NCBI GenBank assembly: GCA_034432445.1
Contig: DAOUBX010000124.1
Coordinates: 8,571-72,570, forward strand
Length of the DNA: 64,000 bases
Source of the DNA: Anaerolineales bacterium
GTDB taxonomy: Bacteria > Chloroflexota > Anaerolineae > JAAEKA01
Direction: 5' to 3'
The number at the start of each line of letters is the position of its first letter. Within the stretch, counting starts at the first letter, position 1. Made by a program: the position numbers and the translations under genes. Shown piece by piece: positions 32,264 to 56,109 of this stretch. The notes below the pieces were generated by a model, which saw only the letters and a program-made list of their open reading frames with translations, made no database searches and was not told the DNA's origin.

Positions 32264-32290
32264 CACCACGATCTTGGAAGATCGTGGTAC
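32264..32290 (+). terminator. 10-bp perfect stem hairpin just after the YYY-1 stop
   Basis: CCACGATCTTggaAGATCGTGG; there is no U-tract. Confidence 0.35.
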
Positions 32291-32356
32291 AAGCGCGATG
32301 CTCGCAGGCTCTACCATCAACCAATCTACCAATCTGCTCTACCAACCCACCCATCC

Positions 32357-35089: not shown

Positions 35090-35101
35090 GCAGTCAGTTC
35101 C

Positions 35102-35152
35102 CCCCTACCCAGTTCCCCGGAAACTTCGAGTTTCCGGGGAACTGGGTAGGGG
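35102..35152 (+). repeat. near-perfect 23-bp-arm palindrome between YYY-2 and the next gene
   Basis: CCCTACCCAGTTCCCCGGAAACTtcgAGTTTCCGGGGAACTGGGTAGGG. Confidence 0.8.
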
Positions 35153-35170
35153 CAACGGCACGATAGCAAC

Positions 35171-36931
35171 ATGACTCCCACCACAGCAACCTTAGGTACT
35201 TACACCGCCCGGCGCTCCCTCCTGGCCTGGCTCACCATGGAGCGTATGGGCTATGGGCTGGCGCTGCTGATAGCGGCCGGCCTGCGCTTGACGGTCTTGG
35301 GCCAGCAGCCGTTCACCCCTGGCGAGGCGACGCAAGCCTGGACCGCCGTGGCGTGGACGCGTGGCCTGGAGACGCTGCCGCCCGCCGGCAGCAGCCCCCT
35401 CCTGCTCAGCCTGCACTATTTCACCTTCCTGTTGCTCGACGCCACCGAGGCCTGGGCGCGCTTTTGGCCTGCGCTGGCCGGTGCGTTGATGGTGCTGCTG
35501 CCTTGGGCTTTGCGCCGTGAGCTGGGCCGGCCGGCCGCGCTGACCGCGGCGCTTGTGCTGGCCATCTCCACCGTGCTCTCCTTTTGGAGCCGCAGCGCCA
35601 CGGGCGAGAGCTTTGCCTTTGCTGCGACCCTGGCGCTGCTTGTTTGCCTGATTGGCATGCAACGGCCCGGCGGGCAGCGCTGGGCCGGCTGGGCTGCCGC
35701 GGCATTGGCTGTGCTGCTCATGTCGGCGCCGGTGGCCTATTCTGCGCTGCTGGCGCTGATCCCCTTGACCGTGATTGCGTGGCGCGGCCGGCAGGCTTTC
35801 GCCGCAAGCGAAGCAGCGCGGCCGGCGTGGCTACAAGCCGGGCTGGTCTTGCTCGTTTTGCTCATCCTAGGCTCCACGGCGTTTCTGACGCAGCCGTCGG
35901 GCCTGGCCGCGCTGGCCGACCTGCCGGCGGTCTGGCTGAACCAGTGGACCCAGGCCAGCGGCTACAGCCTGACCAGCCTGCTGCTGCAGCTCGTGCTCGA
36001 CGAGGCGTTCCTCCTGGTGGTGGGCATTGCCGGGCTGGCCGTGGGGCTTTGGCGCCGCCACCCCTTGGCCCCTGGGCTGGGGGCCTGGCTGTTGGTTGGC
36101 CTGCTCGTGCTGTTGCGCCCCGGCCGCAGCCCTGCCGACCTCGGGGTGTTGGCCGTGCCCTTGGCCCTGCTGGGTGGCCTGGCTCTGTCCGAGTTTGCCT
36201 CCTATTTTCGGCGTACGGTCGTGCGCAGCCAGCCCTGGGAAGGATTTGTGCTCTTCCTCGTTGGCGTCGCGCTGCTGGGCTTCACCGCCATTTGGCTGGC
36301 CGACTACGCCGGCTCCAACCAGGCCGCAACAGACAGGGGCTTTCTCTGGTACGCCTTGTTAGGCATCGGCCTGCTGCTGGCCCTGCTTATCTTCTATGCC
36401 CTGTGGTTCGGCCGCGCGGTCACGCTGGCCACGGCGACGCTGCTCCTGTTGTTGGCCCTGCTCTTGCCCAGCCTGCGCGCCGCCTGGGAGATGACGCACA
36501 ACGTGGATGGGCTGCGCTGGGGGTCCCTGCTGCACACCACGGGCGCCGCCGATGGCCCCAACCTGCCCCCCTTCCTGGCCCAGCTCACGGCGCAAGACCG
36601 GCCCTACGGCGGCGACCTGCGCGATCTGGCTGTGTCCTTAGTCGCCCCACCGGGCACCCCGCCCTCGCCGCTCCTGCGCTGGTATCTGCGCGACGCCAAG
36701 GTGACCGAGGTTCCGGGCGCAAGCGAGAACAGCCGCATCATCGTCGCCCTGGCCGACGCGCCCCTGCCCCTCAGCGACGCCTACAGCGGCCGCAGCTTTC
36801 GTCTCGCTCAAAGCTGGACGCCCGTCGGCTTGAAAGGCGGCGCGCTGTGGCGTTGGCTGATCTTTGGTCACTACGGCCAACCGTTGCAACAAGAGCGCGC
36901 CGTCGTGTGGGTGCGTCAGACCGGCCAGTAG
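35171..36931 (+). CDS. polytopic membrane protein, TIGR03663-like (GT-C fold, PMT/ArnT-like N-terminal similarity), YYY-associated
   Basis: The protein has multiple TM helices with GT-C-like loop spacing. It is adjacent to the TIGR03662 genes in the arrangement typical for this family. Confidence 0.6.
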   Translation: MTPTTATLGTYTARRSLLAWLTMERMGYGLALLIAAGLRLTVLGQQPFTPGEATQAWTAVAWTRGLETLPPAGSSPLLLSLHYFTFLLLDATEAWARFWPALAGALMVLLPWALRRELGRPAALTAALVLAISTVLSFWSRSATGESFAFAATLALLVCLIGMQRPGGQRWAGWAAAALAVLLMSAPVAYSALLALIPLTVIAWRGRQAFAASEAARPAWLQAGLVLLVLLILGSTAFLTQPSGLAALADLPAVWLNQWTQASGYSLTSLLLQLVLDEAFLLVVGIAGLAVGLWRRHPLAPGLGAWLLVGLLVLLRPGRSPADLGVLAVPLALLGGLALSEFASYFRRTVVRSQPWEGFVLFLVGVALLGFTAIWLADYAGSNQAATDRGFLWYALLGIGLLLALLIFYALWFGRAVTLATATLLLLLALLLPSLRAAWEMTHNVDGLRWGSLLHTTGAADGPNLPPFLAQLTAQDRPYGGDLRDLAVSLVAPPGTPPSPLLRWYLRDAKVTEVPGASENSRIIVALADAPLPLSDAYSGRSFRLAQSWTPVGLKGGALWRWLIFGHYGQPLQQERAVVWVRQTGQ

Positions 36932-37043
36932 CGCCAACGCATCACCCGGAGAACAGGATGCCCGGTCGAGCTGTTCTGCCAGCTCTGGCGGTTCACGCTC
37001 CACCTGCTTTCCGTGCCTTCAGTTCAATCGACAATCAACAACC

Positions 37044-40000
37044 ATGAACGACACGTTACGTCAACCCGAAATCCCGCAGACCCAAGACCCGTCAGCCGAG
37101 CCGAGCTGGCTCGACCGCTCGCTGGCCACCCTTTTCACCTGGAACGTCGAAAAGATCGCCTGGCTGGTGCTGCTGGCCGTGGCGCTCGTGATCCGCCTGG
37201 TGGACATCGGGGCGCGCACGGCCAGCCATGACGAAAGCGAACACGCCTGGTTCGCCTATAACCTGTTCGCCGGCAAGGGCTATGAACACAACCCCATCTA
37301 CCATGGGCCGTTCATCTACCACGTCATGGCCCTGTTTTACCTGCTCTTCGGCGACGGCGACGTCACAGCGCGCGTGCCTACGGCGCTCTTTGGTTTCGGC
37401 ATCGTGGCGCTGATGTGGCCGGCGCGGCGCTGGCTGGGCAAATACGGCGCCTTCTTTGCCGCGCTGCTGATCACCTTCTCGCCTGCGCTGTTGCACTATT
37501 CCCGCCACACCCGCCACGACATCTACGAGATCTTCTGGGCGCTTGCATTCATCATCTGCACGTTCCGCTACCTGGAGTACGACGCGCAACGGCCAGCCAA
37601 GTGGCTGTATCTGATCGCCGCCGGCCTTTCGTTGGCGCTGGCCAGCAAAGAGGATGCGTTCATCCACGGCGCGCTGCTGGGCGGCTTTCTGGTGCTCTTC
37701 ATCGCCTATCGCTGGCTACTCTGGCGGCTCAACCCCGATCACCCGGCCGAGGAGCGCGAGGCGCCGCTGAGCGGCGCGCGCCCGCGGGACTGGGCCGTGC
37801 TGGCCGGCATCCTGGCGCTCTCGCTGGTCGGCGCGCTCTTCGTGCGCCTCACCGGCCTGACCAGCGGCACCTACAACAGCAGCGGCGCGGCCGGCGCGCT
37901 GCAGACTGTGCTCCGCCTGCTGCCGATGATTGCGCCGCCGGCCGCGGCGGTCGGCCTGGCGGTCTGGTACATCCGCAAGCGGGAGGCCACAGCGGATGCA
38001 CCTCTGACCTTCAGCTCCGCCACCGACGTCGCCGTGCTGCTGGCGACACTGATCCTGCCCTGGGCATCGCCACTGTTCATCCGCCTGCTGGGCTACGATC
38101 CGCTGGACTACAACTTCCCCGGCGGCATCCTCAGCTCACTGTCGGTGGTGCTGGCGGTCGCAGGCATGGCCGCAGCGATCGGTATCCTATGGAACCGCCG
38201 GCGCTGGCTGATCGCCGCCGGCATCTTCTATGCCATCTTCATCATTCTCTTCACGACCTTCTTCACCAACGGCAAGGGCTGGGCTACGGGGCTGGTAGGC
38301 TCGCTGGGCTACTGGCTGTCGCAACAGGGCGTGGCGCGCGGCTCGCAGCCCTGGTACTACTACGCCTTGATCACGCCCCTCTACGAGTTCCTGCCCATCC
38401 TGCTCACCATCCCGGTGCTGTGGCGCGCCTTCATGCGTCGCAACCTCACCAGCCTGGTGTTGCTTGCGCTCGTGGTGGCGTTCTCGGCCGGCGCCCTCAT
38501 CGCCAACGCAGCCATGCGCAGCGATCCGGCGTCGCTGCCAAGCGGTCTGCACAAGACGCTGGCCCATGGCGCCGTGATGCTCGCCATCCTAGCGACAGCT
38601 TGGGGCGGCTTGATCCGCTTCCCCGGCCGCCGGCAGGCCTTTCTGGCCTTCTTGCCCATGTTCGTCGTCGGCAGTTGGGGCATCTACTCCTGGGCCGGCG
38701 AGAAAATGCCCTGGCTGGTGGCCAGCATTACCCTGCCGATGTGCATCGCCGGCGGTTGGTGGCTGGGGCAGGTGGTAGAGCGCGTGGACTGGGCGGCCGT
38801 GCGCGCCAAGGGCGGCGTCTGGATCGCCGTGCTGGTGCTGCCGCTGCTGGCGGCTCTCGCCGCCCTGTTGGGCAGCCGGCCGTTCCAGGACCGCACGATT
38901 GCCGGCCTCAGCGAGACCAGCCAATGGTTTGGCGCGCTGCTTGTCGCCGCCGTTGCCCTTGCCCTGATCGTCTGGCTGGGGCAGCGGCTGGGCTGGCCCA
39001 ACACGCGGCGTATCATCGGCCTGACGCTTACCGCGCTGTTGGGAATCTGGATGCTGCGCACCACCTACATGCTCAACTTCATCAACTATGACTTCGTGAG
39101 CGAGTACCTGTTCTATGCCCACGCCTCACCCGACCCCAAGATGGTCATGCGCAACCTGGCGGATATGAGCCGACGCACCGTGGGCGACAAACAGCTCAAG
39201 ATCGCCTACGACGACGACTCCTCGTGGCCGTTCAACTGGTATCTGCGCGACTGGCCGAACGCCGTCTACTTCGGCGCCAACCCCACGCGGGAGGTCATGC
39301 AGGACGCGCCGGCCGTGCTGGTGGGCGACAAGAACCTCGACAAAGCCCGCCCTTACCTGCAACGCGACTACTACGAGTTCCGCCACCGGCTGATCTGGTG
39401 GCCAGACGAGAGCTACAAGAGCGTCACCTGGGAGAAGATCAAAGCCGGCATCACCGATCCCATCAAGCGCAAGGAGTTCCTGGACGCCGTGCTGTGGCGC
39501 GAATACCGCACGCCGATGTCGGAATGGCCGTTGGTGCATCGTTTCAGCTTGTTTGTGCGCAAGGACGTCGCCAACCAACTGTGGGACTTCGGCGCGCAGC
39601 CGGCCACTGCGCCGGCCTTTGTCGATCCCTACGAAAAAGGGCTGCGCCAGATAGCCGCCTATCAGACCATCGGCAGCGGCCCAGGCGCGGCGCCCGGCCT
39701 GCTCAACCTGCCGCGCAACGTCGCCGTTAGTGACGACGGCGCATTCCTCGTAGCCGACAGCGGCAACCATCGTATTCAGGTGTTCGCTCCTGACGGCAGC
39801 CTCGTCACCCAATGGGGCAGCTCCTGCGAACTGTACACCGCTGACCTGCCGGGCTGTGTCGATCCCGACGGGGCCGGCCCGCTGGAACTGGGCGACGGCC
39901 AGATGCGCGAGCCGTGGGGCATTGCCGTCGGGCCGCAAGGCAACATCTATGTCGCCGACACATGGAACCATCGCATCCTGGTGTTCGACCGCGCGGCCAA

Positions 40001-40631
40001 GCAGCTGGCCAAATGGGGCACGTTTGCTACGACCAACGGCGAAGCTGTCGGCGGAGAAAGCGCCTTCTGGGGCCCGCGCGGGCTGGCCATCGATGGGGCC
40101 GGCAACGTCTTCGTGGCCGACACCGGCAACAAGCGCATTCAGGTCTTCGACGCTGCGGGCGCGTTCCTGGGCCAGTTCGGCGGCGGAGGCGTGGTCGAAG
40201 GGCGCTTCGACGAGCCGGTCGGACTGGCGCTGATCCCGCGCCCCAATGGTGAGCCCGGCGGCACGCTGTTCGTGGCCGACACGTGGAACCGCCGTGTGCA
40301 GAAGTTCGAGGTCACGTTTGATGAATTCGCCGAAGGCGCGCCCAGCTTCACCTTCCTCAAAGAGTGGCCCATCGAGGGCTGGTCGAGCCAAAGCATCGTC
40401 AACAAGCCGTTCCTGGCTACAGACGGCAGCCGGTTGTACGTCACCGATCCGGAGAACTGGCGCGTGCTGGTCTTCGACCCGGACGGCAACTTCAAAGCCA
40501 CCTTTGGCAGCTATGGCAGCGACACGCAAAGCTTTGCGCTGCCGGTAGGCATTGCCGTTACGCCCAATGGCGACGTAGCGGTCGTGGACTCCGACAACCA
40601 CCGCCTGCTGGTGTTCCCGCCGGTGGACTAG
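37044..40631 (+). CDS. TIGR03663-like GT-C-fold membrane protein fused to C-terminal NHL-repeat beta-propeller
   Basis: The N-terminal membrane domain (…DESEHAWFAYNLFAGKGYEHNPIYHGPFIYH…) is PMT-like. The C-terminus has at least five NHL-type repeats (LVADSGNHRIQVF, YVADTWNHRILVF, FVADTGNKRIQVF, FVADTWNRRVQKF, VVDSDNHRLLVF). Start chosen at ATG 37044 (MNDTLRQ). Confidence 0.7.
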   Translation: MNDTLRQPEIPQTQDPSAEPSWLDRSLATLFTWNVEKIAWLVLLAVALVIRLVDIGARTASHDESEHAWFAYNLFAGKGYEHNPIYHGPFIYHVMALFYLLFGDGDVTARVPTALFGFGIVALMWPARRWLGKYGAFFAALLITFSPALLHYSRHTRHDIYEIFWALAFIICTFRYLEYDAQRPAKWLYLIAAGLSLALASKEDAFIHGALLGGFLVLFIAYRWLLWRLNPDHPAEEREAPLSGARPRDWAVLAGILALSLVGALFVRLTGLTSGTYNSSGAAGALQTVLRLLPMIAPPAAAVGLAVWYIRKREATADAPLTFSSATDVAVLLATLILPWASPLFIRLLGYDPLDYNFPGGILSSLSVVLAVAGMAAAIGILWNRRRWLIAAGIFYAIFIILFTTFFTNGKGWATGLVGSLGYWLSQQGVARGSQPWYYYALITPLYEFLPILLTIPVLWRAFMRRNLTSLVLLALVVAFSAGALIANAAMRSDPASLPSGLHKTLAHGAVMLAILATAWGGLIRFPGRRQAFLAFLPMFVVGSWGIYSWAGEKMPWLVASITLPMCIAGGWWLGQVVERVDWAAVRAKGGVWIAVLVLPLLAALAALLGSRPFQDRTIAGLSETSQWFGALLVAAVALALIVWLGQRLGWPNTRRIIGLTLTALLGIWMLRTTYMLNFINYDFVSEYLFYAHASPDPKMVMRNLADMSRRTVGDKQLKIAYDDDSSWPFNWYLRDWPNAVYFGANPTREVMQDAPAVLVGDKNLDKARPYLQRDYYEFRHRLIWWPDESYKSVTWEKIKAGITDPIKRKEFLDAVLWREYRTPMSEWPLVHRFSLFVRKDVANQLWDFGAQPATAPAFVDPYEKGLRQIAAYQTIGSGPGAAPGLLNLPRNVAVSDDGAFLVADSGNHRIQVFAPDGSLVTQWGSSCELYTADLPGCVDPDGAGPLELGDGQMREPWGIAVGPQGNIYVADTWNHRILVFDRAAKQLAKWGTFATTNGEAVGGESAFWGPRGLAIDGAGNVFVADTGNKRIQVFDAAGAFLGQFGGGGVVEGRFDEPVGLALIPRPNGEPGGTLFVADTWNRRVQKFEVTFDEFAEGAPSFTFLKEWPIEGWSSQSIVNKPFLATDGSRLYVTDPENWRVLVFDPDGNFKATFGSYGSDTQSFALPVGIAVTPNGDVAVVDSDNHRLLVFPPVD

Positions 40632-42408: not shown

Positions 42409-45400
42409 TCACTGCATCGTGCGATACACGGTGTTGACCAGGAGCCGCTGGCCTTCAGCCGTCATGGTGGCCGGGCCGTCCTGGAAACCCCATAGCATCC
42501 ACTGGCCGTTCTCCATGATCAGATTGGCGTACCGGTCGTCGTTGTCCTGCCGGCCGAAGACCAGGACGCCCGTCGGCTGGTTGCCGAGGAAGATATCCAC
42601 GCGGGGGCTGGAGCGTTCGTAGAGCGTCATCCGTCGCACATCGCGCAGATCGAACTCGTAGGGGTAGCGCCAGATCGCGTCGGTCTGGTTCCCAGGTCGA
42701 ATGGCCACGCCGCTGCTGTGCGCGCCGTTGGCATAGCCGATGTCCAGCCCCAGCCGGCCGAAGAACGCGTAACCACCCTCGCCCAGCCCCAGCACAGGCC
42801 GCTTGTAGCGCAGGATGTGGCGCAGCGCCTCCTCGGTTCCCCAGCGGTTCAACGAACCCGTGTCCGGGCCAACGACGACCAACCGGTAGCGCTGCAGGTC
42901 AAGCGACGGCACGCTGTTGACATGGGCCAGATCGATCACCATGCCGTTGTCGTCGATCAACGCCTTGTAGCGTAGCGCAGTCTGAACGTCGTCGGCGTGC
43001 ACGTACAGGGCGCGCGGCCGCAGGTGGAAGCTGACGTTCTTGAACAGGGTGAAGGGGCGTCCCAGCCGATCTTGGCCCACCGCCGCCCCACGCACGGCAT
43101 AGGGCCCGGCCGCAAAGCCTTGCCAGAAGAAATTGGCATAGATGCCGTCGTCTTTCTTCCCATCGCCGTGCTGTCCGTCGTCCAGCAATGGGAGCGACAC
43201 GGGCTCGCCGCCGCCGGGGCCAAAGATGTTGACCGTCACCAGCTGGTCGGGCAGCGGTCTGCCGGCCTGGCTGAGAAAGCCGATCAGGTGCACAGGGGCG
43301 CCAGTGGCCAGCTCGCGGGCCGGCGTGCCCACCAACAACTGGAAGCTCACCTCCGTCTTGGCGCTGGCCCAGAGCACGAATTCATTGTCCTTGCGGGTGT
43401 CTAGGTACTCCAGCGCAACCCGCCAGACGCCCGGTGCGGGATCGGGGATGATGCACGTCTCGTGCGTAGGATCCGTGCGGCAGAACCTGTTCGTGTCAGG
43501 TCGTTGCGGATCATAGCGATACACGACGCCGTTCGGATCGGTCACGATCAGCCGCAGTCGGTTGTTGTACAGCGACCAGTTGACGGCCAGGGTCAGCCGC
43601 TTCAGGCCCTCCGGCACCTCCAACCGCCACGCGCGCGGCGCGCTGCCGTCGGTGCGGCCATGCTCCTGCAACAGCCGGCTCTCGCCCAGCATATCCTCGG
43701 CGATGGTCTTGTAGATGTCGCCCAGGCGGTTGGGCAGGGTCTGCGGCCAAGAGGCGTTGCCGCTGCCCGCAGCAGTCGCCGTGTCTTCGAGCGCTTTGGC
43801 CACGCCTTCCTCGGTGACCGCAAAGAAGTCGCCGCCGTTTTCCCCGGCAATGGTCTGCACCAGGGCATGGAAACCGGCGCTGGCCGGACCGACCGCAATG
43901 CCGTCGATGATCGTGTTGGTCGGTTCGATGACGCCCCTGACAGCCGCGGTGTCGTACAGCGGATCGACGTTCTCCATGCCATCGGTCAGCAGCACGATGC
44001 GATCGGCGACGCTGTAGTCGGCCGGAGCCGCAGTGACCTGCGCCTGGCCGGCCAGCAAGCCCTTGCCGATGGCCGTCATACCGCCCGGCGTGAACGCGTC
44101 CACGGCTGCCTTGGCCGCGTTCAGCTCCGGTGTCAGCGGGCTGTCGGACACCAGGGTGATCGGATAAGGGGTGGAGGCGTTGGTACTGAAGCCAACAACG
44201 GCGATGCGGTCAGCGGGCAACGACTGATCGATGAACAGGCGAGCGGCGTTCTTGGCCGCGGCCATCTTGTCGTACTCCGACATGCTGCCAGAGTGATCGA
44301 CGACGATGGCCCGATCGGTGACCTCGCGCTCGGTGAAAAGGATGGCGCGCGTCTCCGTGTCCGCGCCGTAGCCATTCCATGTCACGGTCAGGTCGTATTT
44401 GCTGCCGGCGCTGTAGACGCCGGCCTGCGGCCGCACGTTCAGGAAGAAGCGATCGCCCACCGGCAAACCGCTGATTACTGCCGCGGCCGTGCCGCCTACC
44501 TGCACCTGGAAGTCAGCCGCAGTGGCGTCGGCCAGTGAGCTGGCGCCGCCGCTACTGGCGTTGGCCTCGAGCACCACCAAAACCACGTTGGGGTTGACCG
44601 GATCGCCGGCCTCAGCCACGTTGCCGGTCTGCGGGGAGACGATGTTCAGTTGGCGGAAATCGCCCGCCAGGCTATAGCGCTGAGCATTGCCGTTGGGCAG
44701 AGCAAAGCGGGTGACCGTGATCGTCCACACGCCTGGCGCCGGATTGGGTACCTGCACCTGCTCCACGTTGTTGAGCCGGTCCACGCCGCGGGTGGCAGGC
44801 AGCACATGGGTGGCACGCACAATGGGATCGGCGAGGCCGGTGTCCTGGTTGCTGGCGTTGAAGGTGCTGTTGTTGCGCGGCAACGCAGGCAACACCCAAG
44901 GTCGCCAGATCGTGCCGTCCGGCGCCTGCAAGGTTAGGTCGAGGTCGTTGACCAACTGCGCGGCCTGGATGCCCAGCATCGGATTGCCCGGCTCGTCGTC
45001 CCACACCAGCGTGAATTTCAGCTCGGCGCGGCCAGGCGTCACCTGGACGGTGTAGGTGTCGGTGGGATCGGCCGGGCTGACCGTGCCTTCGACGAAGTTG
45101 CGGGCGCGAATAGCGGCCACGGCGCGACGGGCGTTGACCCGGCCGTAACCGGTCGACCAATCGGGGCCGGCGTGGAAGATCACCGGTTGACCGCTGTCGG
45201 GGTCGTTCCACCCATACTCGACGAAACCGGGTTGCGCCGGCTCGTGCACGAGGTCGGTGGCGGTCTGGATCAACAACGCCTTGATCGTGGAGTTGTATGG
45301 GCGGCCTGCGCTGGGATAGGTCTGGTGGAACTGCTCGGTCATCAAGGCTGCAATGCCGCTCACGGCCGGCGCGGCCATCGAGGTGCCACACTTCGAGACG

Positions 45401-47541
45401 TAGCCCTGCGAGTCGTGATCCGTGGACATCATGCAGCCGGTGGCTGCCACGTCAGGCTTCAACCGGCCATCCCATGTCGGTCCGCGGCTGCTGGTCTGGC
45501 GCAGGTTTTGCGTGCCGGGGTTGAGAGATCCGACCGTCAGCGAGTTCTTGGCCGGGCTAAGGATCGAGTAATAGCCGCGCGGCCCACTGGTGGGATCGGC
45601 ATCGCCGCTGGGCAAGGTGGCCGTGGTGCAATACTGAGCCGCAATGCCTTGGTTGGCAGCCGCCCACACGATGGTATGGCGCGGGATGGCGGTGGTCCCA
45701 TCGGTGAGCTCGCCGCGCGCCAACCGGTCAACGGTCTGCGCGGTTGAGTCGTAGCTGCCGCAGGTCATCACATAGGAGTGGTTGCTGACCTCCATGCCAT
45801 GGGTGTTGACGGCCTCGTTCATTACGCCGGCGTCCCACCCGCCATAAGGCGCAAGACGCACGTTCGGCGCCATGCCGCGCAGTTGGAAGGGCGTGCAGCT
45901 GGCGTAGGGGCAGTTGGTCTGGCTGTTGACGCCGCTGGCGCCGATAATGCCGGCGACGTGCGTGCCATGGCCGTTGTCGTCATTCTGCGTGCGCAGCAGG
46001 CGGCCGGCGAAATCGTTGTGATCGAAGCCGGCAGCCTCGACGCCCGAATCGAACACCCCGACGACCACACCCGTGCCGTCCATGCCGGCGTAGAAGGCCG
46101 GGTTGACGCCGGTGTTGACGTTCTGCACGGCATCGACATCCAGGTCGTTGCGGGCGACATCGTTGAGCAGACGCAGAGGCGCAGGCCCTTCCTCGATCCA
46201 ACTGATGCGGTCCTCCTGGCTCAGCGCCGCAATGCGGTCGGCTGGCATGACCAGAGCCCAGGTTTGATTGGCAAAGGGGGAGGCGTTGCCATAGCGGGCC
46301 AGGATTGTACGGGCTTCGCCCGCCGACACATCGGCGAAGAAGGTAACCAGCAGCTTGACGGTGTTGGCCGTGTCTTTGGCCCAAGGCTCAAAGTTGCCTG
46401 CCAACACCTTGGGATCCACGCGATCCTGCGGCAACACCTGCCCCAGCCAGCGCACCAGCGCAGCAAAGGCCGGATCTTCCAGCCGCGGGCGGGGTGCGGT
46501 CACCGAGGCCGTGTAGAGGGTGTCGCCGACGAAGCGATCCAGCGTGACGCCCAAATCGCTGAGCACGGCGCGCTCACGCTCGCTCGGCTGGCGATAGAGC
46601 TGCACGAAGCCATGCAAGTTTGGCAGCGTGGTACTCCCCAGCGCTTGCAAGAAGTCAGGATCAACGCCCGCCGGCGGCGTGAAGGTGCGGGAACGCAGGG
46701 CCAGCTCCAGACCCTGGCTCTGGAACGACATGGCGTTGATGAACAGGTCTCGCCCTGTGGCGGTCATGGCGGCGGGCGCAGCGTTGAAGCCCCACAACAG
46801 GTAGCGAGACTGCACCTGGACGATGGGGAACGGGCTGGCGGCGCCGGCCAGCGAGGCCAAACGCACGCCGTCGGGCAGCCGTTCGGCCAGAGGGATGGCA
46901 ATTGCAGGCTGTTCGCTTTGGTAGAGCCGCAGTTGGCCGTTGCCGGGGATGCTGATCGGCCGCGGCGTCGTGTAGAAACGCTGGCTATCGCCGAAGTCGG
47001 CAACCTGGACGACGGCCGACTGCGTGCGTTGGCCGTTGGGATAGCCGATTTCCAGGCCAAGGCGGCCAAAGAAGGCGTGACCGCCTGCGCCAATGCCCAC
47101 GACCGGCAAGCCCGAAGCCTGCACCGCTTCCAGCAAACCTGGCTCAGGCTGCCACGTGCCATCAGCGCCCGTGTCAGACCCGATCACGATCAGATCGTAC
47201 TGGCGGAAATCGGGGATGGCGGTGAGAGCGGCTGTTTGTGCGGCACCGCTGCCGACGGCAACCAGCGGCAACCGCACCTTGAAGCGGCGATCGCCCGGCG
47301 TGCCGACGCGCACGGCCTGAGCGCTGTAGCCGTTGGCGTTGAGGAGGTCGACGAAGGATTGCGCCGCGGCGGCATCGGTAGTGTACAGGAGAGCCACGCG
47401 CACAGGGCCCTCAGTCTGGGCAGCGACCGGAGCAGGCGGCGCCAGAGGGCCGAGCAAACTCATCAGCATGGTCAAGGCGAGCAACAGCGAGAGGCTGCGC
47501 AGCCTTTTGACGGTTGGGAGCGAGCGACGGTGAGTTCTCAC
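42409..47541 (-). CDS. 1710-aa secreted subtilisin-like serine protease (S8) with vWA domain and paralogous ~250-aa domains at both termini
   Basis: The protein has a signal peptide and an S8 triad (GVFDSG; HGTHVAGIIG; GTSMAAPAVSGIAAL). The vWA MIDAS motif is VVDHSGSMS. The N-terminal and C-terminal domains both end in …L(L/M)WGF…T(A/M)T(A/E)G(R/Q)(D/R)L(F/L)(I/V)N. Confidence 0.8.
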   Translation of the reverse strand: MRTHRRSLPTVKRLRSLSLLLALTMLMSLLGPLAPPAPVAAQTEGPVRVALLYTTDAAAAQSFVDLLNANGYSAQAVRVGTPGDRRFKVRLPLVAVGSGAAQTAALTAIPDFRQYDLIVIGSDTGADGTWQPEPGLLEAVQASGLPVVGIGAGGHAFFGRLGLEIGYPNGQRTQSAVVQVADFGDSQRFYTTPRPISIPGNGQLRLYQSEQPAIAIPLAERLPDGVRLASLAGAASPFPIVQVQSRYLLWGFNAAPAAMTATGRDLFINAMSFQSQGLELALRSRTFTPPAGVDPDFLQALGSTTLPNLHGFVQLYRQPSERERAVLSDLGVTLDRFVGDTLYTASVTAPRPRLEDPAFAALVRWLGQVLPQDRVDPKVLAGNFEPWAKDTANTVKLLVTFFADVSAGEARTILARYGNASPFANQTWALVMPADRIAALSQEDRISWIEEGPAPLRLLNDVARNDLDVDAVQNVNTGVNPAFYAGMDGTGVVVGVFDSGVEAAGFDHNDFAGRLLRTQNDDNGHGTHVAGIIGASGVNSQTNCPYASCTPFQLRGMAPNVRLAPYGGWDAGVMNEAVNTHGMEVSNHSYVMTCGSYDSTAQTVDRLARGELTDGTTAIPRHTIVWAAANQGIAAQYCTTATLPSGDADPTSGPRGYYSILSPAKNSLTVGSLNPGTQNLRQTSSRGPTWDGRLKPDVAATGCMMSTDHDSQGYVSKCGTSMAAPAVSGIAALMTEQFHQTYPSAGRPYNSTIKALLIQTATDLVHEPAQPGFVEYGWNDPDSGQPVIFHAGPDWSTGYGRVNARRAVAAIRARNFVEGTVSPADPTDTYTVQVTPGRAELKFTLVWDDEPGNPMLGIQAAQLVNDLDLTLQAPDGTIWRPWVLPALPRNNSTFNASNQDTGLADPIVRATHVLPATRGVDRLNNVEQVQVPNPAPGVWTITVTRFALPNGNAQRYSLAGDFRQLNIVSPQTGNVAEAGDPVNPNVVLVVLEANASSGGASSLADATAADFQVQVGGTAAAVISGLPVGDRFFLNVRPQAGVYSAGSKYDLTVTWNGYGADTETRAILFTEREVTDRAIVVDHSGSMSEYDKMAAAKNAARLFIDQSLPADRIAVVGFSTNASTPYPITLVSDSPLTPELNAAKAAVDAFTPGGMTAIGKGLLAGQAQVTAAPADYSVADRIVLLTDGMENVDPLYDTAAVRGVIEPTNTIIDGIAVGPASAGFHALVQTIAGENGGDFFAVTEEGVAKALEDTATAAGSGNASWPQTLPNRLGDIYKTIAEDMLGESRLLQEHGRTDGSAPRAWRLEVPEGLKRLTLAVNWSLYNNRLRLIVTDPNGVVYRYDPQRPDTNRFCRTDPTHETCIIPDPAPGVWRVALEYLDTRKDNEFVLWASAKTEVSFQLLVGTPARELATGAPVHLIGFLSQAGRPLPDQLVTVNIFGPGGGEPVSLPLLDDGQHGDGKKDDGIYANFFWQGFAAGPYAVRGAAVGQDRLGRPFTLFKNVSFHLRPRALYVHADDVQTALRYKALIDDNGMVIDLAHVNSVPSLDLQRYRLVVVGPDTGSLNRWGTEEALRHILRYKRPVLGLGEGGYAFFGRLGLDIGYANGAHSSGVAIRPGNQTDAIWRYPYEFDLRDVRRMTLYERSSPRVDIFLGNQPTGVLVFGRQDNDDRYANLIMENGQWMLWGFQDGPATMTAEGQRLLVNTVYRTMQ

Positions 47542-49750: not shown

Positions 49751-49848
49751 CGCGCAGAGAAAGAATGTGCCGGTGAGCGATCTGAGCGCACCACGTGGAT
49801 TCGCTCGCTCTATCAGTCCATTTCGTTGCGTAACCTGCAGGAGGACGT

Positions 49849-50805
49849 ATGCTTCAGCATAACCCCCCACGACGGAGCGTACTTGCCTCGGTGTTTGTCG
49901 CCGTAGTGCTGTTGGCGCTGGCGCTCTTTCAGTCTGTGTCGGCCGCTGCGACTGCGCCCCAGTCCACCGGTCCGGAACGGTGCGCTGTCTGTCATCGCGC
50001 TGAAACCCAGGACTGGCAGAACTCGCCCCACGCGCAAGCCATCGACCCGCTTCATCATGATGCCTTGATCCGGGAATGCAACACTGCGGCGGGCGAAGAT
50101 TGCACCTGTTTGACCTGCCACACCACCAACTTCGACACCACTACCGAGCAATTTGCCACAGCCGGTGTCACCTGTGAGGCGTGCCACGGCGCCTATGTGG
50201 AAGGCCACCCGGAAAACGGCGTGATGCAGCTGAGCGTAGACTCGTCGGTGTGCAGCAATTGCCACGTGGACACCTATGAGGATTGGCGGCAGACACCCCA
50301 CGCGCAGGCCGGGGTCCAGTGCATCGGTTGCCATCGCTCCCATTCACAAGATCTACGCCTGCAAGACGAGGTGTTGTGCAGATCCTGCCACCGCGACAGA
50401 CTGGAAGACCCTGGTCACGTGGCTCACACCCGCACCGGCGTTAACTGCATCGACTGTCACACAACGCCGTCGGCCACCCATGGTGTAGCCCAAGCCGCCG
50501 CAGAGGGCGGCAATGCCCCCGTCCACGACTTCACCGTGGTTACTGACGTGTGTGCTGAGTGTCACCAGGACATGTTTCGCACCGCAAGCAGCGCAACAGC
50601 CCAGCAGGCATTCTACATCAGTGGCCCACCTGCAACCGTCAGCGAGGCTGCGACGGTGGTGGCTGCGGAAGCAAACCGACGCTGGCTGCAGAGCGCTACG
50701 GCCATCAGCTTCGGGCTAGGGCTGGGCATCGGTGGCATGGGTGGCATTGTATTCGTCCTCATCGTGGCGTTCATTCTGCAGCGACAACGGAGCGCCAAGA
50801 TATGA
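49849..50805 (+). CDS. membrane-anchored octahaem c-type cytochrome (NrfB-like)
   Basis: A signal peptide is followed by eight CxxCH motifs (CAVCH, CLTCH, CEACH, CSNCH, CIGCH, CRSCH, CIDCH, CAECH). There is a C-terminal TM helix. Confidence 0.85.
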   Translation: MLQHNPPRRSVLASVFVAVVLLALALFQSVSAAATAPQSTGPERCAVCHRAETQDWQNSPHAQAIDPLHHDALIRECNTAAGEDCTCLTCHTTNFDTTTEQFATAGVTCEACHGAYVEGHPENGVMQLSVDSSVCSNCHVDTYEDWRQTPHAQAGVQCIGCHRSHSQDLRLQDEVLCRSCHRDRLEDPGHVAHTRTGVNCIDCHTTPSATHGVAQAAAEGGNAPVHDFTVVTDVCAECHQDMFRTASSATAQQAFYISGPPATVSEAATVVAAEANRRWLQSATAISFGLGLGIGGMGGIVFVLIVAFILQRQRSAKI

Positions 50806-51719
50806 GCACCCGCAAAGATACCTCCTCCCGCCGTGAGTTTCTCAAAACCGCCGGCGCTGGTGTTGCAACCTGGGTCATTGCCGGCGTTGCCGCCGACCCG
50901 GCTCAGGCCAGCAGCGAGCCAGCGTCAGACGCCTATGGGATGTTGATTGACGTCACACGCTGCACGGGCTGCAACTCATGCGCGTTGGCCTGCAAGGAGA
51001 CCAATGCGCTTCCGGATCCTGAGACCGTGCCTATCAAGCTGGACAGCGGCGCCTATTCCTACGTCGACGAACGCGAGGCCGCGATTGCTGCTTATCAGCG
51101 CCAATCCCAGTTTGTGAAGCGCCAGTGCATGCACTGTGTGCATCCGGCCTGCGCTTCAGCCTGCACAGTGGGCGCGCTGCACAAGACGCCTGCAGGCCCC
51201 GTGGTCTATGACAGTCACAAGTGCATTGGCTGCCGTTATTGCCAGTACGCCTGTCCGTTCGGTGTGCCCACTTTTGACTGGAACAATCCTTTGGGGCTGA
51301 TCCACAAGTGCCAGATGTGCGTCGAACGGCTGGCGCAAGGGGAGAAACCGGCCTGCGTGGCGGCCTGTCCGGCCGGTGCCATTCAGTTTGGATCGCGGCA
51401 GGAGTTGCTCAACCGGGCGCATGCCCAGATCGCCAGCAACCCGGGCCGTTACATCGACCACGTGTATGGTGAGCACGAAGCCGGTGGCACGTCGGTTCTC
51501 TACCTGGCCGGTGTTCCCTTTGCCAGCCTTGGCCTGCCCGAGCTTGGCCCTGAGCCGATCTCGCGCTACGCGGAACCCGTGATGCGCGCCACGCCGTTCG
51601 TGGCTGCCACGGTAGCTTCAATGGCCGTGGCGCTCAACTGGCTAATGAAACGGCGTGAGCTTCATATGGCAGAAGTAGAAGCAGACGCCGTCAGGCAGGA
51701 TGGAGGAACACGGCAATGA
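50802..51719 (+). CDS. Tat-exported 4x[4Fe-4S] ferredoxin-type subunit (NrfC/HybA/PsrB-like) with C-terminal TM anchor
   Basis: The twin-arginine signal is SRREFLK. Four cysteine clusters are present (CTGCNSCALAC, CMHCVHPACASAC, CIGCRYCQYACP, CQMCVERL…CVAACP). Start at ATG 50802, overlapping the cytochrome stop. Confidence 0.8.
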   Translation: MSTRKDTSSRREFLKTAGAGVATWVIAGVAADPAQASSEPASDAYGMLIDVTRCTGCNSCALACKETNALPDPETVPIKLDSGAYSYVDEREAAIAAYQRQSQFVKRQCMHCVHPACASACTVGALHKTPAGPVVYDSHKCIGCRYCQYACPFGVPTFDWNNPLGLIHKCQMCVERLAQGEKPACVAACPAGAIQFGSRQELLNRAHAQIASNPGRYIDHVYGEHEAGGTSVLYLAGVPFASLGLPELGPEPISRYAEPVMRATPFVAATVASMAVALNWLMKRRELHMAEVEADAVRQDGGTRQ

Positions 51720-52888
51720 CCACGAGCATCGTCACAGAACGCAAACCGGCCACAGACATTGGGCTGCCGGCTTTGGATAGCGGGATCGTCGTTGTCTTGT
51801 TGGCCTTGCTCACACTCGTCGGTGTCGTAGCCGGCGTTGTCCGTCTTCTCTTGGGTCTAGGGCCCACGACCAACCTGTCAGACGCTTACACGTGGGGCAT
51901 TTGGATCGGCTTCGACTTCACCCTCATCGCATTTGCCGGCGCAGGCTTCACCATGGCGTTCATTGTCCACGTCCTGCGCCAGCATCAGTACGGCGACGCA
52001 GTACGCCCCGCTATTCTGACCGGCCTGCTGGGCTATGTGGCTGTGCTTCTGCTTCTGGTCCTTGACCTGGGCCGCCCGGATCGTTTCTACAACTTCCTCT
52101 TGTATTGGAACGTCCACTCGCCCCTGTTTGAGATCAGCTGGTGCATCCTGCTCTACACAACGGTGCTGGTGATCGAGAGCAGCCCCTTCGCTCTGGAACG
52201 CTTGCAGCGGCACAAGCTGCTCCGGCTGGCCTTCAAGGTGCTGTTGCCCGTGTCAATCGTGGGCGTCATGCTGTCCACTCTGCATCAGTCCACCCTGGGC
52301 ACGCTCTACCTGAACATGCCACACCGGCTCCACCCCTTGTGGTTCACGCCTATCTTGTCTCTCTTGTTCTTCGTCTCCTCGGTCATGTCCGGCCTCAGCA
52401 TGGCGATCCTGGTGTACATGGCCGCAGCGCGCATCACCGGCCGTCCGATCAAAGAGGCGATCGTGCTGGGGTTGAGCCGCATTGTGGGCTGGGTCAGCGT
52501 TCTCTATGTGGCGCTAAAGGTTGCCGATCTGGCAATTGCCGGTGAACTCTCTCTGCTGTGGAACTCCGGCGTGCTTGGTTGGCTGATGGTGTTGGAACTG
52601 GCGGTTTTCGCTGCGTTGCCTGCGCTCTTGCTGTTGATGCCACGCTTGCGCTCCCGTCGCAGCGTGCAGATCGGCGCCCCCTTGCTCATTCTAGCCGGCG
52701 TGTTGTTGAACCGCTTCAGCGCCACGATGTTCGCCCAGAAGCTGCCGCCAGGAACCACCTACGTCCCCCACTGGCTGGAATGGCTATCGACTATCGGTGT
52801 CCTGGCCGGAGTCGCCCTGGCGTGGTATTTTGGTGTACGCTACTTAGTGATCTTCGACAGCCAGGCGGAGGCTAAGTATCACACGTAG
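51716..52888 (+). CDS. NrfD/PsrC/HybB-like integral membrane quinone-interacting subunit
   Basis: The 390-aa protein has about 10 TM helices. Its start overlaps the stop of the Fe-S gene. Confidence 0.75.
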   Translation: MTTSIVTERKPATDIGLPALDSGIVVVLLALLTLVGVVAGVVRLLLGLGPTTNLSDAYTWGIWIGFDFTLIAFAGAGFTMAFIVHVLRQHQYGDAVRPAILTGLLGYVAVLLLLVLDLGRPDRFYNFLLYWNVHSPLFEISWCILLYTTVLVIESSPFALERLQRHKLLRLAFKVLLPVSIVGVMLSTLHQSTLGTLYLNMPHRLHPLWFTPILSLLFFVSSVMSGLSMAILVYMAAARITGRPIKEAIVLGLSRIVGWVSVLYVALKVADLAIAGELSLLWNSGVLGWLMVLELAVFAALPALLLLMPRLRSRRSVQIGAPLLILAGVLLNRFSATMFAQKLPPGTTYVPHWLEWLSTIGVLAGVALAWYFGVRYLVIFDSQAEAKYHT

Positions 52889-52978
52889 ACAGTGCCTGCC
52901 AAGCAGCAACAGGGAGTGCGGCGGAGTTAGGCCGGCGTGCCAACGTTGGCTAGCCGCGTAGAGCGCGTAGAGATGGCA

Positions 52979-53021
52979 AAAGACCTCTTGCTCCGGCCCA
53001 ATGCCGGGGCAAGAGGTCTTC
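52979..53021. terminator. bidirectional hairpin between convergent genes
   Basis: AAAGACCTCTTGCtccggcccaatgccggGGCAAGAGGTCTT forms a 13-bp stem. Confidence 0.5.
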
Positions 53022-53027
53022 TTGCAC

Positions 53028-55328
53028 CTATTCCTCCAGCAATTGCAACCATTCTCCGCCCAGATCGGCCCAGCGCGCGCCGTAGAAGATGTGATCTTGC
53101 CCGCTAGGCGCACGATAGACAAGATCGACGGTCGTGTACGAGCGGCGCAGTGATCCCAGATTGCCCACCCATGTTACGGCGTTGTCGTCGAGCGGCCGGT
53201 CGTGATCGATGTGCATGCGCAGGGCATAATGGCGGAGGCTGCCCTCCTTGAGCATATCGGGGGACCACAGCCGGCTTTCCACATGTTGATTGCCGAGGTT
53301 GTGGAACTTGAACAGCGGATCGGCGCCGTTTTCGCGCACTTCGACCACTTCTAGCCCGGAGCGTGGCAGCTCCACGCGCAGCAGGCTGGCCCAATCGTCG
53401 GGTAAGCTCTCGCAGGGTACGCTGCGGTAGAAGAGGTCTTTGCCATAGCGATTGCGAAAGACCAGGTCGCAGTGCAGCCCGTTGCTGGTCATGTATACCG
53501 CTTCCACACCCATGTTGCCGCGCCACCGGATGCGTCGGTTGGACGGCAAGGTCTCCACCGTGGCGCCTGGAGGGGGGGCGCACTCAAAGAGCGGGTCCCA
53601 CGCGGCGCTGACCCAGCTGACAGCCACAGCAAAGAACACATGGGAGATCTTGCCCGCTTCGTCGCGGAAAAGCAAATCACATTTAACGCGGCCGCGCTGG
53701 TCGTAAACCTCGTTGGTGCGGTAGATGCGCCACAGGCCCATTCGGCCATGCCACCGCGCCAGATGGTTGAGATCATCCATGCGCTGGCGGATCGCCAAGT
53801 AGTTCTTGATCGCGTACAGCCACACGCTGGTGGCGGTCTGTTCCGATGCCTGGCTCTCGCGGTTGGTGCGCAGGTCGATCACGCGGAAGTACTCTGTGTC
53901 GCCGCGCAAGGTCTGGCCGACGATTTCCACGCCCGACTTAGGCTGTTCGATGCCGGGCGCCAACAACCGCACCTGGCCATCGGTGGGCATAGACCGGCTG
54001 GCATACTCGTCATCGGCGTGCAGCATGTCGATGATATCAGCATGAGTGGCCAGCACCGTTTTGCCGCCGCGGCGCACATAGATCGACTTAACCCCGTCTT
54101 GCACCAGAAAACAGGGCTTGCGCTGCATTTCCTGCACTTCGATCTGCACGACGTCTTGCCCCTCATACTTGAGGATGTCTACTGACCACTCCGGCTGAGG
54201 AAAGACGCTCTCGCTGATGGCTGTTTGGAAGGCGCGCATGTCGCTCGACGCATCGGCGACTCCTTGCACCGGCACGTCAGGATCAGGGTCCAGCCCCAGA
54301 TAGATGATGCCGCCGCCGCTGTTGGCTAAAGCTACCACGTGCTGGCAGGTTTCGGTCAGGTTATCGATGCAATTCGGGCAGAGGACGTGGTGATCGGAAG
54401 GGCCAGCCGTGCGTGCATCGGTAATGCGGTTGAACTGTGTCACATCGGAGACGTAGGGCACGCGCACGCGGTGGAAGTCGTTGCTGCGCAGCAGGTCGCG
54501 CAGCGCCTCGAAGGTGGGCTCTGGCAGCAGCATCTCCGTTGGACGGTCGCCAATGCCCCAGCGCCGCATCTGGGCGCCGGGGTCTTGCACCAGGCGATGG
54601 GCGTCGGAGCTTTGGATGCAATGCATGCGCCGCTCATAGCCCAGGTTAGTGCCGTCATACCAGCGCGGGCTGGCGAACCCCTGCAGGTGGGTGCTGTGAA
54701 AACCAGCGAACTCCAAGGCATCCAGATAGGGGCTTTGAGTAGCGCCTACGCGCGCAGCGCCGGTGGGCAGGTTGTTGGCAAATGCCAGCACGCCCGTGGG
54801 CGCGTTAATATGTGCGGCAATGGCAATGCCGCCGGCGTCATGAATGATTTTGTAGGATTCGAGATGGGCGCGCGTGCCGGGCAGCGAGGTCGTGCCCAGG
54901 TGCATCTTGTCGTAAGGTACGCCGAGCTCGTTGAGCACTGCTTTGATGTGCGAGATGCAGTCGGGCATCTTGGGCGAAAACAGGCCCAACACGTGAGAGC
55001 CAAAACTGGTGGTCAGCTCAAAGCCTGGCAGCAAAGTAATCTTGGCAAGAAGTCTTCTGTATTCGTTGAGCTCGGCTTGCTCTTGTTCGTTCAGCCGTCC
55101 ACGTGCTTCCAGACGCTCCAAGAATTCGATCTCGTCGAAAATCGCCTCGTAGCCGGCGATGGTGTTGTGATCCGTCAATGCTATGATGTCTAACCCGCGT
55201 CGCTCTGCCTCTCGAAGAATGTCCAGGTAAGTCACATCTTTGTCTACGTAATCTTCAGAGGCAGGCGTATGGATATGCAAGTCAACCCGACACCACCGCA
55301 TCGCCTGCTGTTCTGCCTCTTTTTCCAT
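53028..55328 (-). CDS. 766-aa multidomain protein: N-terminal PHP phosphoesterase domain (TrpH/YciV-like) + AlbA_2/Schlafen-core-like putative DNA-binding domain + three C-terminal ~80-aa repeats (WxGxxG…DLxFR)
   Basis: PHP motifs VDLHIHTP, ALTDHNT, GFELTT, AAHINAP and SSDAHRL are present. The AlbA_2 core is HVVALANSGGGIIYLGLDPD…IYVRRGGKT. The repeats are WHGRMG…CDLLFRDEAG, WRGNMG…CDLVFRNRYG and WVGNLG…VDLVYRAPSG. Confidence 0.7.
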   Translation of the reverse strand: MEKEAEQQAMRWCRVDLHIHTPASEDYVDKDVTYLDILREAERRGLDIIALTDHNTIAGYEAIFDEIEFLERLEARGRLNEQEQAELNEYRRLLAKITLLPGFELTTSFGSHVLGLFSPKMPDCISHIKAVLNELGVPYDKMHLGTTSLPGTRAHLESYKIIHDAGGIAIAAHINAPTGVLAFANNLPTGAARVGATQSPYLDALEFAGFHSTHLQGFASPRWYDGTNLGYERRMHCIQSSDAHRLVQDPGAQMRRWGIGDRPTEMLLPEPTFEALRDLLRSNDFHRVRVPYVSDVTQFNRITDARTAGPSDHHVLCPNCIDNLTETCQHVVALANSGGGIIYLGLDPDPDVPVQGVADASSDMRAFQTAISESVFPQPEWSVDILKYEGQDVVQIEVQEMQRKPCFLVQDGVKSIYVRRGGKTVLATHADIIDMLHADDEYASRSMPTDGQVRLLAPGIEQPKSGVEIVGQTLRGDTEYFRVIDLRTNRESQASEQTATSVWLYAIKNYLAIRQRMDDLNHLARWHGRMGLWRIYRTNEVYDQRGRVKCDLLFRDEAGKISHVFFAVAVSWVSAAWDPLFECAPPPGATVETLPSNRRIRWRGNMGVEAVYMTSNGLHCDLVFRNRYGKDLFYRSVPCESLPDDWASLLRVELPRSGLEVVEVRENGADPLFKFHNLGNQHVESRLWSPDMLKEGSLRHYALRMHIDHDRPLDDNAVTWVGNLGSLRRSYTTVDLVYRAPSGQDHIFYGARWADLGGEWLQLLEE

Positions 55329-55551
55329 AAGGAATCTCCTGGCTTTGGTCTTTGCGGCTTTATGCGATTGTACTGAATTTTGCTGCCAGAATAAGTAACC
55401 TACCTCCTTCTGCGGCCAAGTGGTCTGTCAAGTCCTATTTGCGTCCAGGTGTTGGCTTTCCACAGGTGCTTACATCGTCACGCCAGTCCACCGCAGTCGC
55501 CGGCTGGCGCCGGCACACCGGTCTGCTGCGGCGGCGCTGACGGATGGCATA

Positions 55552-56109
55552 TCATATCACTGCGCGCAAGCGGGTGTAGGTCTCTTCCAGCGTTTCAGGA
55601 ATGGTGCGCGTTTCGCTTACAGTGGTCATGAAGCTTGTGTCGGCGGTCCAGCGTGGCACAATGTGAATGTGGACGTGGGCTGCGATTCCTGCGCCTGCCA
55701 CCTTGCCCAAGTTGACGCCGACGTTGAAGCCCTCCGGCTGCATGGCAGCTCGCAGCGCCGCCAGCCCTCTGTTGACCAACAGCATCAATTCCAGCAACGT
55801 TTCCGGCGGCAGGTCTTCCAGGCTAGGCACGTGGGCGTAGGGCACAATGAGCAGATGGCCGTTGTTGTAGGGATAACGATTGAGGGTGATATAGGCCGTT
55901 TGCCCACGCAGTAGAACGTGCTGGGTGTTGTCATCGCCCTGCGCGATCTTGTCGCAAAAGACGCAACCCTGCGTTTTCGGGCCCAGAATGTACTCCATCC
56001 GCCAAGGCGTCCACAAATGGTCCAAGGGGGTGTCTCCTGGCACTATGTTTAACGCAATTTGGCGCAAAGCCGTACTGCCGAGACGGTCATTTTTCCAAGC
56101 GCCAGGCAT
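55552..56109 (-). CDS. HIT-family (histidine triad) nucleotide hydrolase/transferase
   Basis: The HVHIHIVPR histidine triad is present together with a CxxC N-terminal motif. Confidence 0.7.
   Translation of the reverse strand: MPGAWKNDRLGSTALRQIALNIVPGDTPLDHLWTPWRMEYILGPKTQGCVFCDKIAQGDDNTQHVLLRGQTAYITLNRYPYNNGHLLIVPYAHVPSLEDLPPETLLELMLLVNRGLAALRAAMQPEGFNVGVNLGKVAGAGIAAHVHIHIVPRWTADTSFMTTVSETRTIPETLEETYTRLRAVI

Follow-up and report, generated by a model that had tools for sequence, protein, structure and literature searches.

A PHP phosphoesterase joined to a Schlafen-like AlbA_2 domain and undescribed repeat units in Chloroflexota

The 64,000-nucleotide stretch of DNA analysed here (the window; contig DAOUBX010000124.1 of an Anaerolineales bacterium, positions 8,571 to 72,570) carries on its minus strand a complete open reading frame (ORF) of 766 amino acids (aa), spanning positions 53028-55328 including the stop codon and starting with ATG. 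Its product joins an N-terminal PHP phosphoesterase domain, a central Schlafen-like AlbA_2 domain, and a C-terminal module assembled from two kinds of repeated unit, here named A and B (Table 1). The reading frame had been proposed by an initial annotation of the window, as had the PHP domain with its metal motifs and an AlbA_2/Schlafen-core-like middle, and all three hold. The ATG start is credible, because a CCAGGAGAT ribosome-binding site lies 14 nt 5' of it in an intergenic alignment of the seven closest orthologous loci. PHP and AlbA_2 are known superfamilies; no description of a PHP-AlbA_2-A-B architecture was found in Pfam, NCBIfam, PADLOC, or the searchable literature, with database names of family members that are generic ('RNA-binding domain-containing', 'AAA-4 family', and 'PHP family Zn ribbon phosphoesterase').

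Table 1. Domains of the 766-aa protein and features flanking its gene, in positions of the window.
Feature	Positions	Strand	Basis or remarks
Complete ORF	53028..55328	-	766 aa; full-length homologues 39-96% identity
PHP phosphoesterase domain, aa 10-290	54459..55301	-	Invariant ligands, NCBIfam and Foldseek matches
Helical hairpin inserted in PHP, aa 58-96	55041..55157	-	Between DHN and GFE motifs; model helices 58-75, 81-96
Schlafen-like AlbA_2 domain, aa ~306-440 (Pfam match 327-426)	54009..54413	-	Pfam, Foldseek, family profile
Unit A1 and long helix, aa 460-522	53763..53951	-	PKSGVEIV…DLRT…WLYAI; models, hhalign
Unit B1, aa 523-582	53583..53762	-	WHGRMG…CDLLFR…; basic β-sheet and helix
Variable linker, aa 583-598	53535..53582	-	Far longer and acidic in Chloroflexales homologues
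Unit B2, aa 599-652	53373..53534	-	WRGNMG…CDLVFR…; basic
Unit A2 and helix, aa 653-712	53193..53372	-	PRSGLEVV…NLGN…HYALRM; models, hhalign
Unit B3, aa 717-766	53031..53180	-	WVGNLG…VDLVYR…; acidic
Conserved 5' region	55334..55407	-	Alignment of 7 orthologous intergenic regions
GGAGGT…TTACTTA element	55392-55407	-	Part of conserved 5' region
TACAAT -10-like box	55367-55372	-	Part of conserved 5' region
CCAGGAGAT ribosome-binding site	55334-55342	-	Part of conserved 5' region
Terminator-type hairpin	52978..53023	-	Stem ~14 bp then UUUU; directly 3' of stop codon
HIT-family gene	55552..56109	-	Pfam HIT E 9e-15; weaker DcpS_C and CwfJ_C_1 matches

Members of the PHP superfamily carry His/Asp/Glu metal-ligand motifs on a distorted (βα)7 barrel. 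The motifs HxH, DH, E, H, H, and DxH are all kept in the 766-aa protein, with its model assigned to the PHP fold by Foldseek, and the nine ligands (H18, H20, D53, H54, E104, H112, H173, D242, and H244) are invariant in 80 long-form homologues as well as in divergent short forms, which argues that the metal site is most likely functional. Over aa 10-283, NCBIfam models place the domain closest in sequence to the PHP module of the TrlF-family ATPases (E 4.6e-25), followed by those of Ppl (1.3e-20) and Spaf_1101 (4.8e-12), and by the CehA/McbA metallohydrolases (1.4e-11), with the TrlF, Ppl, and Spaf_1101 modules matched in the same ranking by 12 of the 12 divergent family PHP domains tested (TrlF best, 8e-31). 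The PHP clade of TrlF, Ppl, and Spaf_1101 is thought to consist of nucleases.

The full-length AlphaFold model (predicted local distance difference test, pLDDT, of 85.7) shares the PHP fold, at a Foldseek probability of 1.0, with EndoQ, TM0559 (2anu), BAD_1165, and RNase AM/YciV (7ug9, 9etk). EndoQ (5zb8, 7k30) is the top match with an E value of 7e-8, and target-normalised template modelling (TM) scores are 0.42-0.44 for EndoQ, 0.63 for TM0559, and 0.60 for the PHP domain of RNase AM. Sequence identity to EndoQ, TM0559, and RNase AM is low at 14-20%, and the 766-aa PHP domain differs from all three by the helical hairpin inserted at aa 58-96, a region conserved across the family. RNase AM has an HxH…DHN N-terminal motif in common with the 766-aa protein, and the match covers the first ~50 residues only. 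The initial annotation had compared the domain with the TrpH/YciV nucleases; the corresponding model (RNase RNM, NF047791) gives 21.2 bits where the cut-off is 375, with the match limited to aa 15-67, and the protein is not an ordinary TrpH/YciV-type enzyme.

The assignment of the middle domain rests on a Pfam SLFN_AlbA_2 (PF04326) match at aa 327-426, with 53.3 bits against a cut-off of 25.3 (E 5e-14), and on a family profile which, compared with solved structures, retrieves SLFN11 (4.5e-10), SLFN5, SLFN14, SLFN12, SLFN13, CbCash (6e-7), and the RecG-related N-domain 2kyy. Foldseek is concordant on the Schlafen matches, and adds the tRNase domain of SAMD9. Nuclease activity of Schlafen proteins depends on an E-D-K or E-E-D triad, formed by E17, D22, and K24 in the prokaryotic CbCash (PMC13462974). 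Across long and short forms of the family, the invariant residues of the AlbA_2 region are only P291, R306, N336, G339, G340, G345, G356, P405, R419, and A427, with no invariant Asp, Glu, or Lys among them. Furthermore, the Pfam match opens at model position 20, after the triad-bearing segment, and the CbCash profile match opens at chain residue 27, past the triad itself. The domain is probably a Schlafen-like fold without the Schlafen nuclease site, since no residue of either triad is conserved, and is thus probably non-catalytic, with a Schlafen-type RNase unlikely. Compared with the known Schlafen/AlbA_2 proteins (SLFN5/11/12/13/14, SAMD9, CbCash, and 2kyy), the 766-aa protein has a single AlbA_2 lobe that is acidic, lacks the triad, and is fused to PHP; a survey of prokaryotic Schlafen proteins makes no mention of PHP ('PHP' occurs 0 times; PMC13462974). 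At the start of the domain lies a CPNC…C.H cysteine cluster (aa 317-330, about 54339-54380) that looks like a zinc knuckle; a zinc ribbon at this place was rejected, with the cluster confined to the closest clade and lost in other homologues.

Modelled alone from 83 aligned sequences, the C-terminus (aa ~455-766) reaches a pLDDT of 93.1 and a predicted TM score of 0.88. The three WxGxxG…DLxFR copies described in the initial annotation were recovered by motif scan and by hhalign, with WxGxxG followed by DLx[FY]R at 526/551, 602/621, and 720/735, but the unit they define, B, measures 50-60 aa and not the ~80 aa proposed, and a second unit, A, present in two copies, had been missed. Each B unit has four strands, one short and then three longer, and a short helix. 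Unit A is made up of three to four β-strands and a helix; its signature reads P(R/K)(S/T)G(V/I)E(I/V)V…DLRT…YA. The units follow one another in the order A1-B1, variable linker, B2, A2-B3. Alignment of family sub-alignments by hhalign gives E values of 2e-16 for B1 with B2, 1e-13 for B1 with B3, 1.5e-11 for B2 with B3, 1.8e-11 for A1 with A2, and 1.8e-18 for AB1 with AB3, and set against 0.1-0.55 in A-versus-B controls these values support homology of the copies within A and within B. This repeat needed profile-profile comparison, with BLASTP self-comparison of the C-terminus finding no internal repeat. Units B1 and B2 have isoelectric points (pI) of ~9.8, and the single A-B units of short forms a median of 9.4.

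The earlier comparison of these repeats with WGR domains did not stand, with no WGR match and with Pfam searches of the C-terminus and of the separate units at E ≤10 returning nothing but DUF5083 at chance level (E 0.18). No PDB structure matched the C-terminal model at E ≤1e-3 in Foldseek, and the C-terminus, used by itself in a word-indexed homologue search, retrieved nothing but fragments of the PHP-AlbA_2-A-B family. Weak fold similarity of the A-B units is seen to chromodomains (HP1, CHD4, Chp1, and cpSRP43) and to the small Sso7d-type domains of β-sheet and helix (Sso7d/Sac7d); the models suggest at most a generic chromo/Sso7d-like topology, and the A-B-B-A-B order occurs in no known protein. 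Chromodomains are characterised by a three-stranded sheet followed by a helix at the C-terminal end, and by an aromatic cage that takes up a methylated ligand. The A-B unit is an undescribed domain, and the whole module is without a solved counterpart.

A database search with the full-length protein gave 1616 matches, and the best 120 span nearly its whole length (a few being N-truncated) and belong to Caldilineales, Anaerolineae, Chloroflexus, Oscillochloris, Roseiflexaceae, and Kouleothrix. In a scan of one genome per GTDB species, relatives were found in at least 596 genomes; the architecture is thus not rare, and of its description as unusual in the initial annotation what stands is that it had not been described. 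Of 80 loci examined among these genomes, 79 belong to Chloroflexota and the remaining one to an unclassified bacterial metagenome-assembled genome, with the set spanning Chloroflexus, Roseiflexus, Oscillochloris, Kouleothrix, Herpetosiphon, Caldilineales, and Anaerolineae, and with conservation extending over the entire length at ~40% identity. No relative was found among the 2.9 million viral contigs of IMG/VR, and plasmids yielded partial PHP matches from TrlF/Ppl genes only, none of which covers 80% of the protein.

In many Anaerolineae the protein is a short form of ~580 aa that ends after a single A-B unit, which identifies PHP-AlbA_2-A-B as the minimal architecture; the long form has gained B2 and A2-B3 via internal duplication. 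Many short-form relatives, among them P0190, P0197, P0240, P0246, P0249, P0262, and P0271, have very long low-complexity linkers and C-terminal tails rich in Lys, Arg, Ala, and Pro, which resemble histone H1 or the arginine-rich segments of RNase E, and some such relatives reach 1000-1358 aa. An A-B profile run against 1.84 billion representative proteins gave 247 matches, and among the best 150, 149 of which were classified by architecture, the non-fragments are almost all PHP-AlbA_2-A-B. The only clear A-B unit in another architecture among these 150 is that of P0145 (locus L081, 1652-2734, plus strand), a complete 360-aa gene in which a NYN/LabA-like RNase domain is followed by one A-B unit, without PHP or AlbA_2.

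The 223-bp gap upstream of the gene had been suspected to hold its own promoter, and conserved promoter-like elements are shared there by the window and its six closest loci (L001-L006). A GGAGGT-N3-6-(C/T)TACT(G/T)A element is followed ~20 nt downstream by a TACAAT(T/C)GAATA box, whose TACAAT lies 44 nt 5' of the ATG, and then by an A-rich stretch that precedes the ribosome-binding site, with the remaining intergenic sequence divergent among the seven orthologous regions. A scan for the sigma-70 consensus gave no call on this region, and since the spacing misfits a standard sigma-70 -35/-10 pair, the GGAGGT…(C/T)TACT(G/T)A element could be bound by a regulator or recognised by an alternative sigma factor. 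LexA boxes (GAAC-N4-GTTC and the E. coli type), CIRCE, and HAIR were found upstream in none of the 80 loci by motif scan, and Rfam places no element anywhere in the window. At the other end, the hairpin at the stop codon folds with a free energy of -39.3 kcal/mol (z -6.8), a value matched by 0 of 200 shuffled sequences. It lies between the PHP-family gene and a convergent NrfD-like gene and is flanked by T and A runs, and may terminate transcription from either side.

Upstream on the same strand are genes for HIT, LarC, a LarE-like ORF, LarB, a URO-D-like protein, and two ABC permeases, consistent with the minus-strand gene string described in the initial annotation, and downstream and convergent are genes for a multihaem cytochrome c, a 4Fe-4S NrfC-like protein, and NrfD. 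The substrates of HIT enzymes are nucleotide-linked 5' ends or dinucleoside polyphosphates. Among the loci examined, a HIT gene immediately precedes the PHP-family gene in the same orientation only in the window and L001-L006, and family neighbours otherwise differ by clade. In the short-form Anaerolineae loci (L051-L078), a Lon protease gene lies upstream in 22 (same strand, ~470 bp), an Hsp20 gene upstream in 16, and a MogA-like gene downstream in 12; in Chloroflexales, a gene for an XerC/D-like recombinase or a 2-oxoacid dehydrogenase E2 acyltransferase is often nearby. No recognisable defence gene is present among the conserved neighbours of the loci examined.

The GC content at third codon positions (GC3) of the 766-aa gene is 0.74, similar to that of the adjacent HIT, cytochrome, and NrfCD genes, and 0.80-0.87 in the lar and transporter genes. 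Seen as a block, positions 49800-56100 (cytochrome c/NrfC/NrfD, the PHP-family gene, and HIT) have GC3 values of 0.67-0.79, compared with 0.80-0.87 in the flanking lar, URO-D, and transporter genes. Elsewhere in the window, positions 30001-38000 show a strong negative AT skew (-0.17 to -0.21) across ~8 kb, unlike the rest, and overlap or adjoin very long ORFs such as that at 36864-40631 (plus strand, 1255 aa); an ORF of 1710 aa lies at 42409-47541 (minus strand).

On balance we favour the view that the protein is a stand-alone, chromosomal, metal-dependent phosphodiesterase that acts on nucleic acid and serves as a housekeeping enzyme of Chloroflexota. Judging by the invariant ligands, catalysis would take place in the N-terminal PHP domain, whose full His/Asp/Glu set would hold a multinuclear metal site. 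The AlbA_2 domain, lacking the triad, would most likely be a recognition, regulatory, or oligomerisation module, and the basic A-B units (A1-B1, B2, and the single A-B of short forms) would most likely bind the enzyme, or tether it, to its nucleic-acid or nucleoprotein substrate, with the Lys/Arg-rich tails of many family members aiding this binding and PHP-AlbA_2-A-B presumably acting as the minimal working unit. A macromolecular nucleic-acid substrate is suggested by the conserved accessory domains, namely the triad-less Schlafen-like domain and the basic A-B units, and by the highly basic tails of many relatives. For the A-B units, further pointers to a nucleic-acid role are the NYN/LabA-like RNase domain that precedes A-B in P0145 and the weak fold similarity to chromodomains and Sso7d-type domains. 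A housekeeping role and vertical inheritance are suggested by the phylum-wide conservation over the full length, the clade-specific housekeeping neighbours, the lack of viral copies in IMG/VR and of plasmid copies covering at least 80% of the protein, and the gene's own promoter-like region and terminator.

Several observations weigh against this view. The Pfam PHP model (PF02811), precomputed for several homologues of the 766-aa protein, scores 23.1 bits on the protein itself, just below its gathering cut-off of 26.4. The AlbA_2 domain has a pI of 4.6-5.0, unusual for a nucleic-acid binder, and the A2-B3 units are likewise acidic. The nearest PHP relatives in sequence, TrlF and Ppl, have not been characterised either, and the latter is known as an anti-phage protein. 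Furthermore, the term 'housekeeping' is drawn from distribution and context, with the count of 596 genomes a lower bound.

The evidence on the nature of the nucleic acid is in conflict, which also tells against the favoured view. An RNA substrate is suggested by the fusion of A-B to a NYN domain, by Schlafen folds being known to target RNA, and by the weak resemblance of the N-terminal motif to RNase AM and RNM. A DNA substrate is suggested by EndoQ as the best fold match, by the H1-like tails, and by the PHP kinship with Ppl and TrlF, whose modules have been suggested to target DNA (PMC11482910). The absence of a LexA box offers weak evidence only against a repair role. Tentatively, we place RNA end-processing or decay slightly ahead; DNA repair or processing is possible, if somewhat less so. 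A bolder proposal, which we regard as rather unlikely, holds the A-B units to be new bacterial chromodomain-like reader or tethering domains, with PHP-AlbA_2-A-B a core Chloroflexota enzyme docked on a nucleoprotein partner, where it may replace a canonical RNase or repair nuclease whilst the dead Schlafen domain senses RNA or DNA shape. Were this true, the protein could be a ribonuclease or nucleoid-associated nuclease, with a partner such as the ribosome, RNA polymerase, or the nucleoid.

The kinship of the PHP domain with TrlF, the anti-phage Ppl, and Spaf_1101, together with the frequency of prokaryotic Schlafen/AlbA_2 domains in defence systems (PMC13462974), is what would be expected of a single-gene anti-phage effector. 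Here a PHP nuclease of the Ppl/TrlF type would work together with a Schlafen-like sensor or effector and, once infection occurs, break down nucleic acid of the phage or of the host. The matches are however confined to the N-terminal ~180-270 of ~880-940 model positions, with Ppl scoring 73 bits against a cut-off of 1000 (model positions 3-181 of 882) and TrlF 88.5 against 350 (3-266 of 944), and PADLOC reports no full-length match, the Ppl model being covered at positions 5-169 of 894 only. TrlF, Ppl, and Spaf_1101 carry a large C-terminal AAA/ABC-like ATPase and are sporadic and often plasmid-borne, whereas the 766-aa protein has no ATPase domain by Pfam, bears AlbA_2 and A-B in its place, and is chromosomal and conserved at full length across a phylum. 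Its neighbours are housekeeping genes and not defence genes, no copy lies on a viral contig of IMG/VR or, at 80% coverage or more, on a plasmid, and the Schlafen triad is not conserved. We therefore consider such an effector unlikely. Of the nucleic-acid surveillance, defence, or RNA-processing roles put forward in the initial annotation, the first two fare poorly for the same reasons, and RNA processing stays among the candidates.

EndoQ, as the top Foldseek match, raises the prospect of a lesion-specific DNA-repair endonuclease that nicks beside deaminated or abasic sites, with the accessory domains of the 766-aa protein replacing the zinc finger and helical domain of EndoQ. This is consistent with the JGI label 'PHP family Zn ribbon phosphoesterase' carried by some members, which is the COG name of EndoQ. 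Against it, the PHP core alone superposes, the zinc finger and C-terminal helical domain, which together with lesion-recognition pockets characterise EndoQ, are lacking, and the TM score to EndoQ is below those to TM0559 and RNase AM. A profile search of PDB sequences does not retrieve EndoQ, no zinc ribbon is conserved beyond the cysteine cluster of the closest clade, and a LexA box is found upstream in 0 of the 80 loci; we consider this role unlikely. Equally unlikely is a phosphoesterase for small molecules or oligonucleotides, for example a pAp or nanoRNA phosphatase of TrpH/YciV or CysQ-like type, in which the extra domains would be regulatory rather than substrate-binding. The weak N-terminal motif matches in its favour, to RNase AM in the PDB and to models of 3',5'-nucleoside bisphosphate phosphatase, RNase RNM, and PhnPP, span ~50 residues around HxH at 16-25 bits against cut-offs of 375-500, and ~480 further conserved residues with basic modules, joined in relatives by Lys/Arg-rich tails, would be hard to explain.

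Soils, sediments, hot springs, and wastewater harbour abundant Chloroflexota, whose basic nucleic-acid metabolism is poorly studied. A protein of ~580-800 residues, present from Chloroflexus to Anaerolineae with a predicted intact catalytic site and without an assigned function, thus marks a concrete gap in knowledge. The A-B unit, absent from Pfam and from solved structures and modelled with confidence (pLDDT 93), could be defined as a new domain. Additionally, the presence of immunity-associated modules, a Ppl/TrlF-type PHP domain and a Schlafen-like domain, in an apparent housekeeping gene could help explain what such domains recognise.

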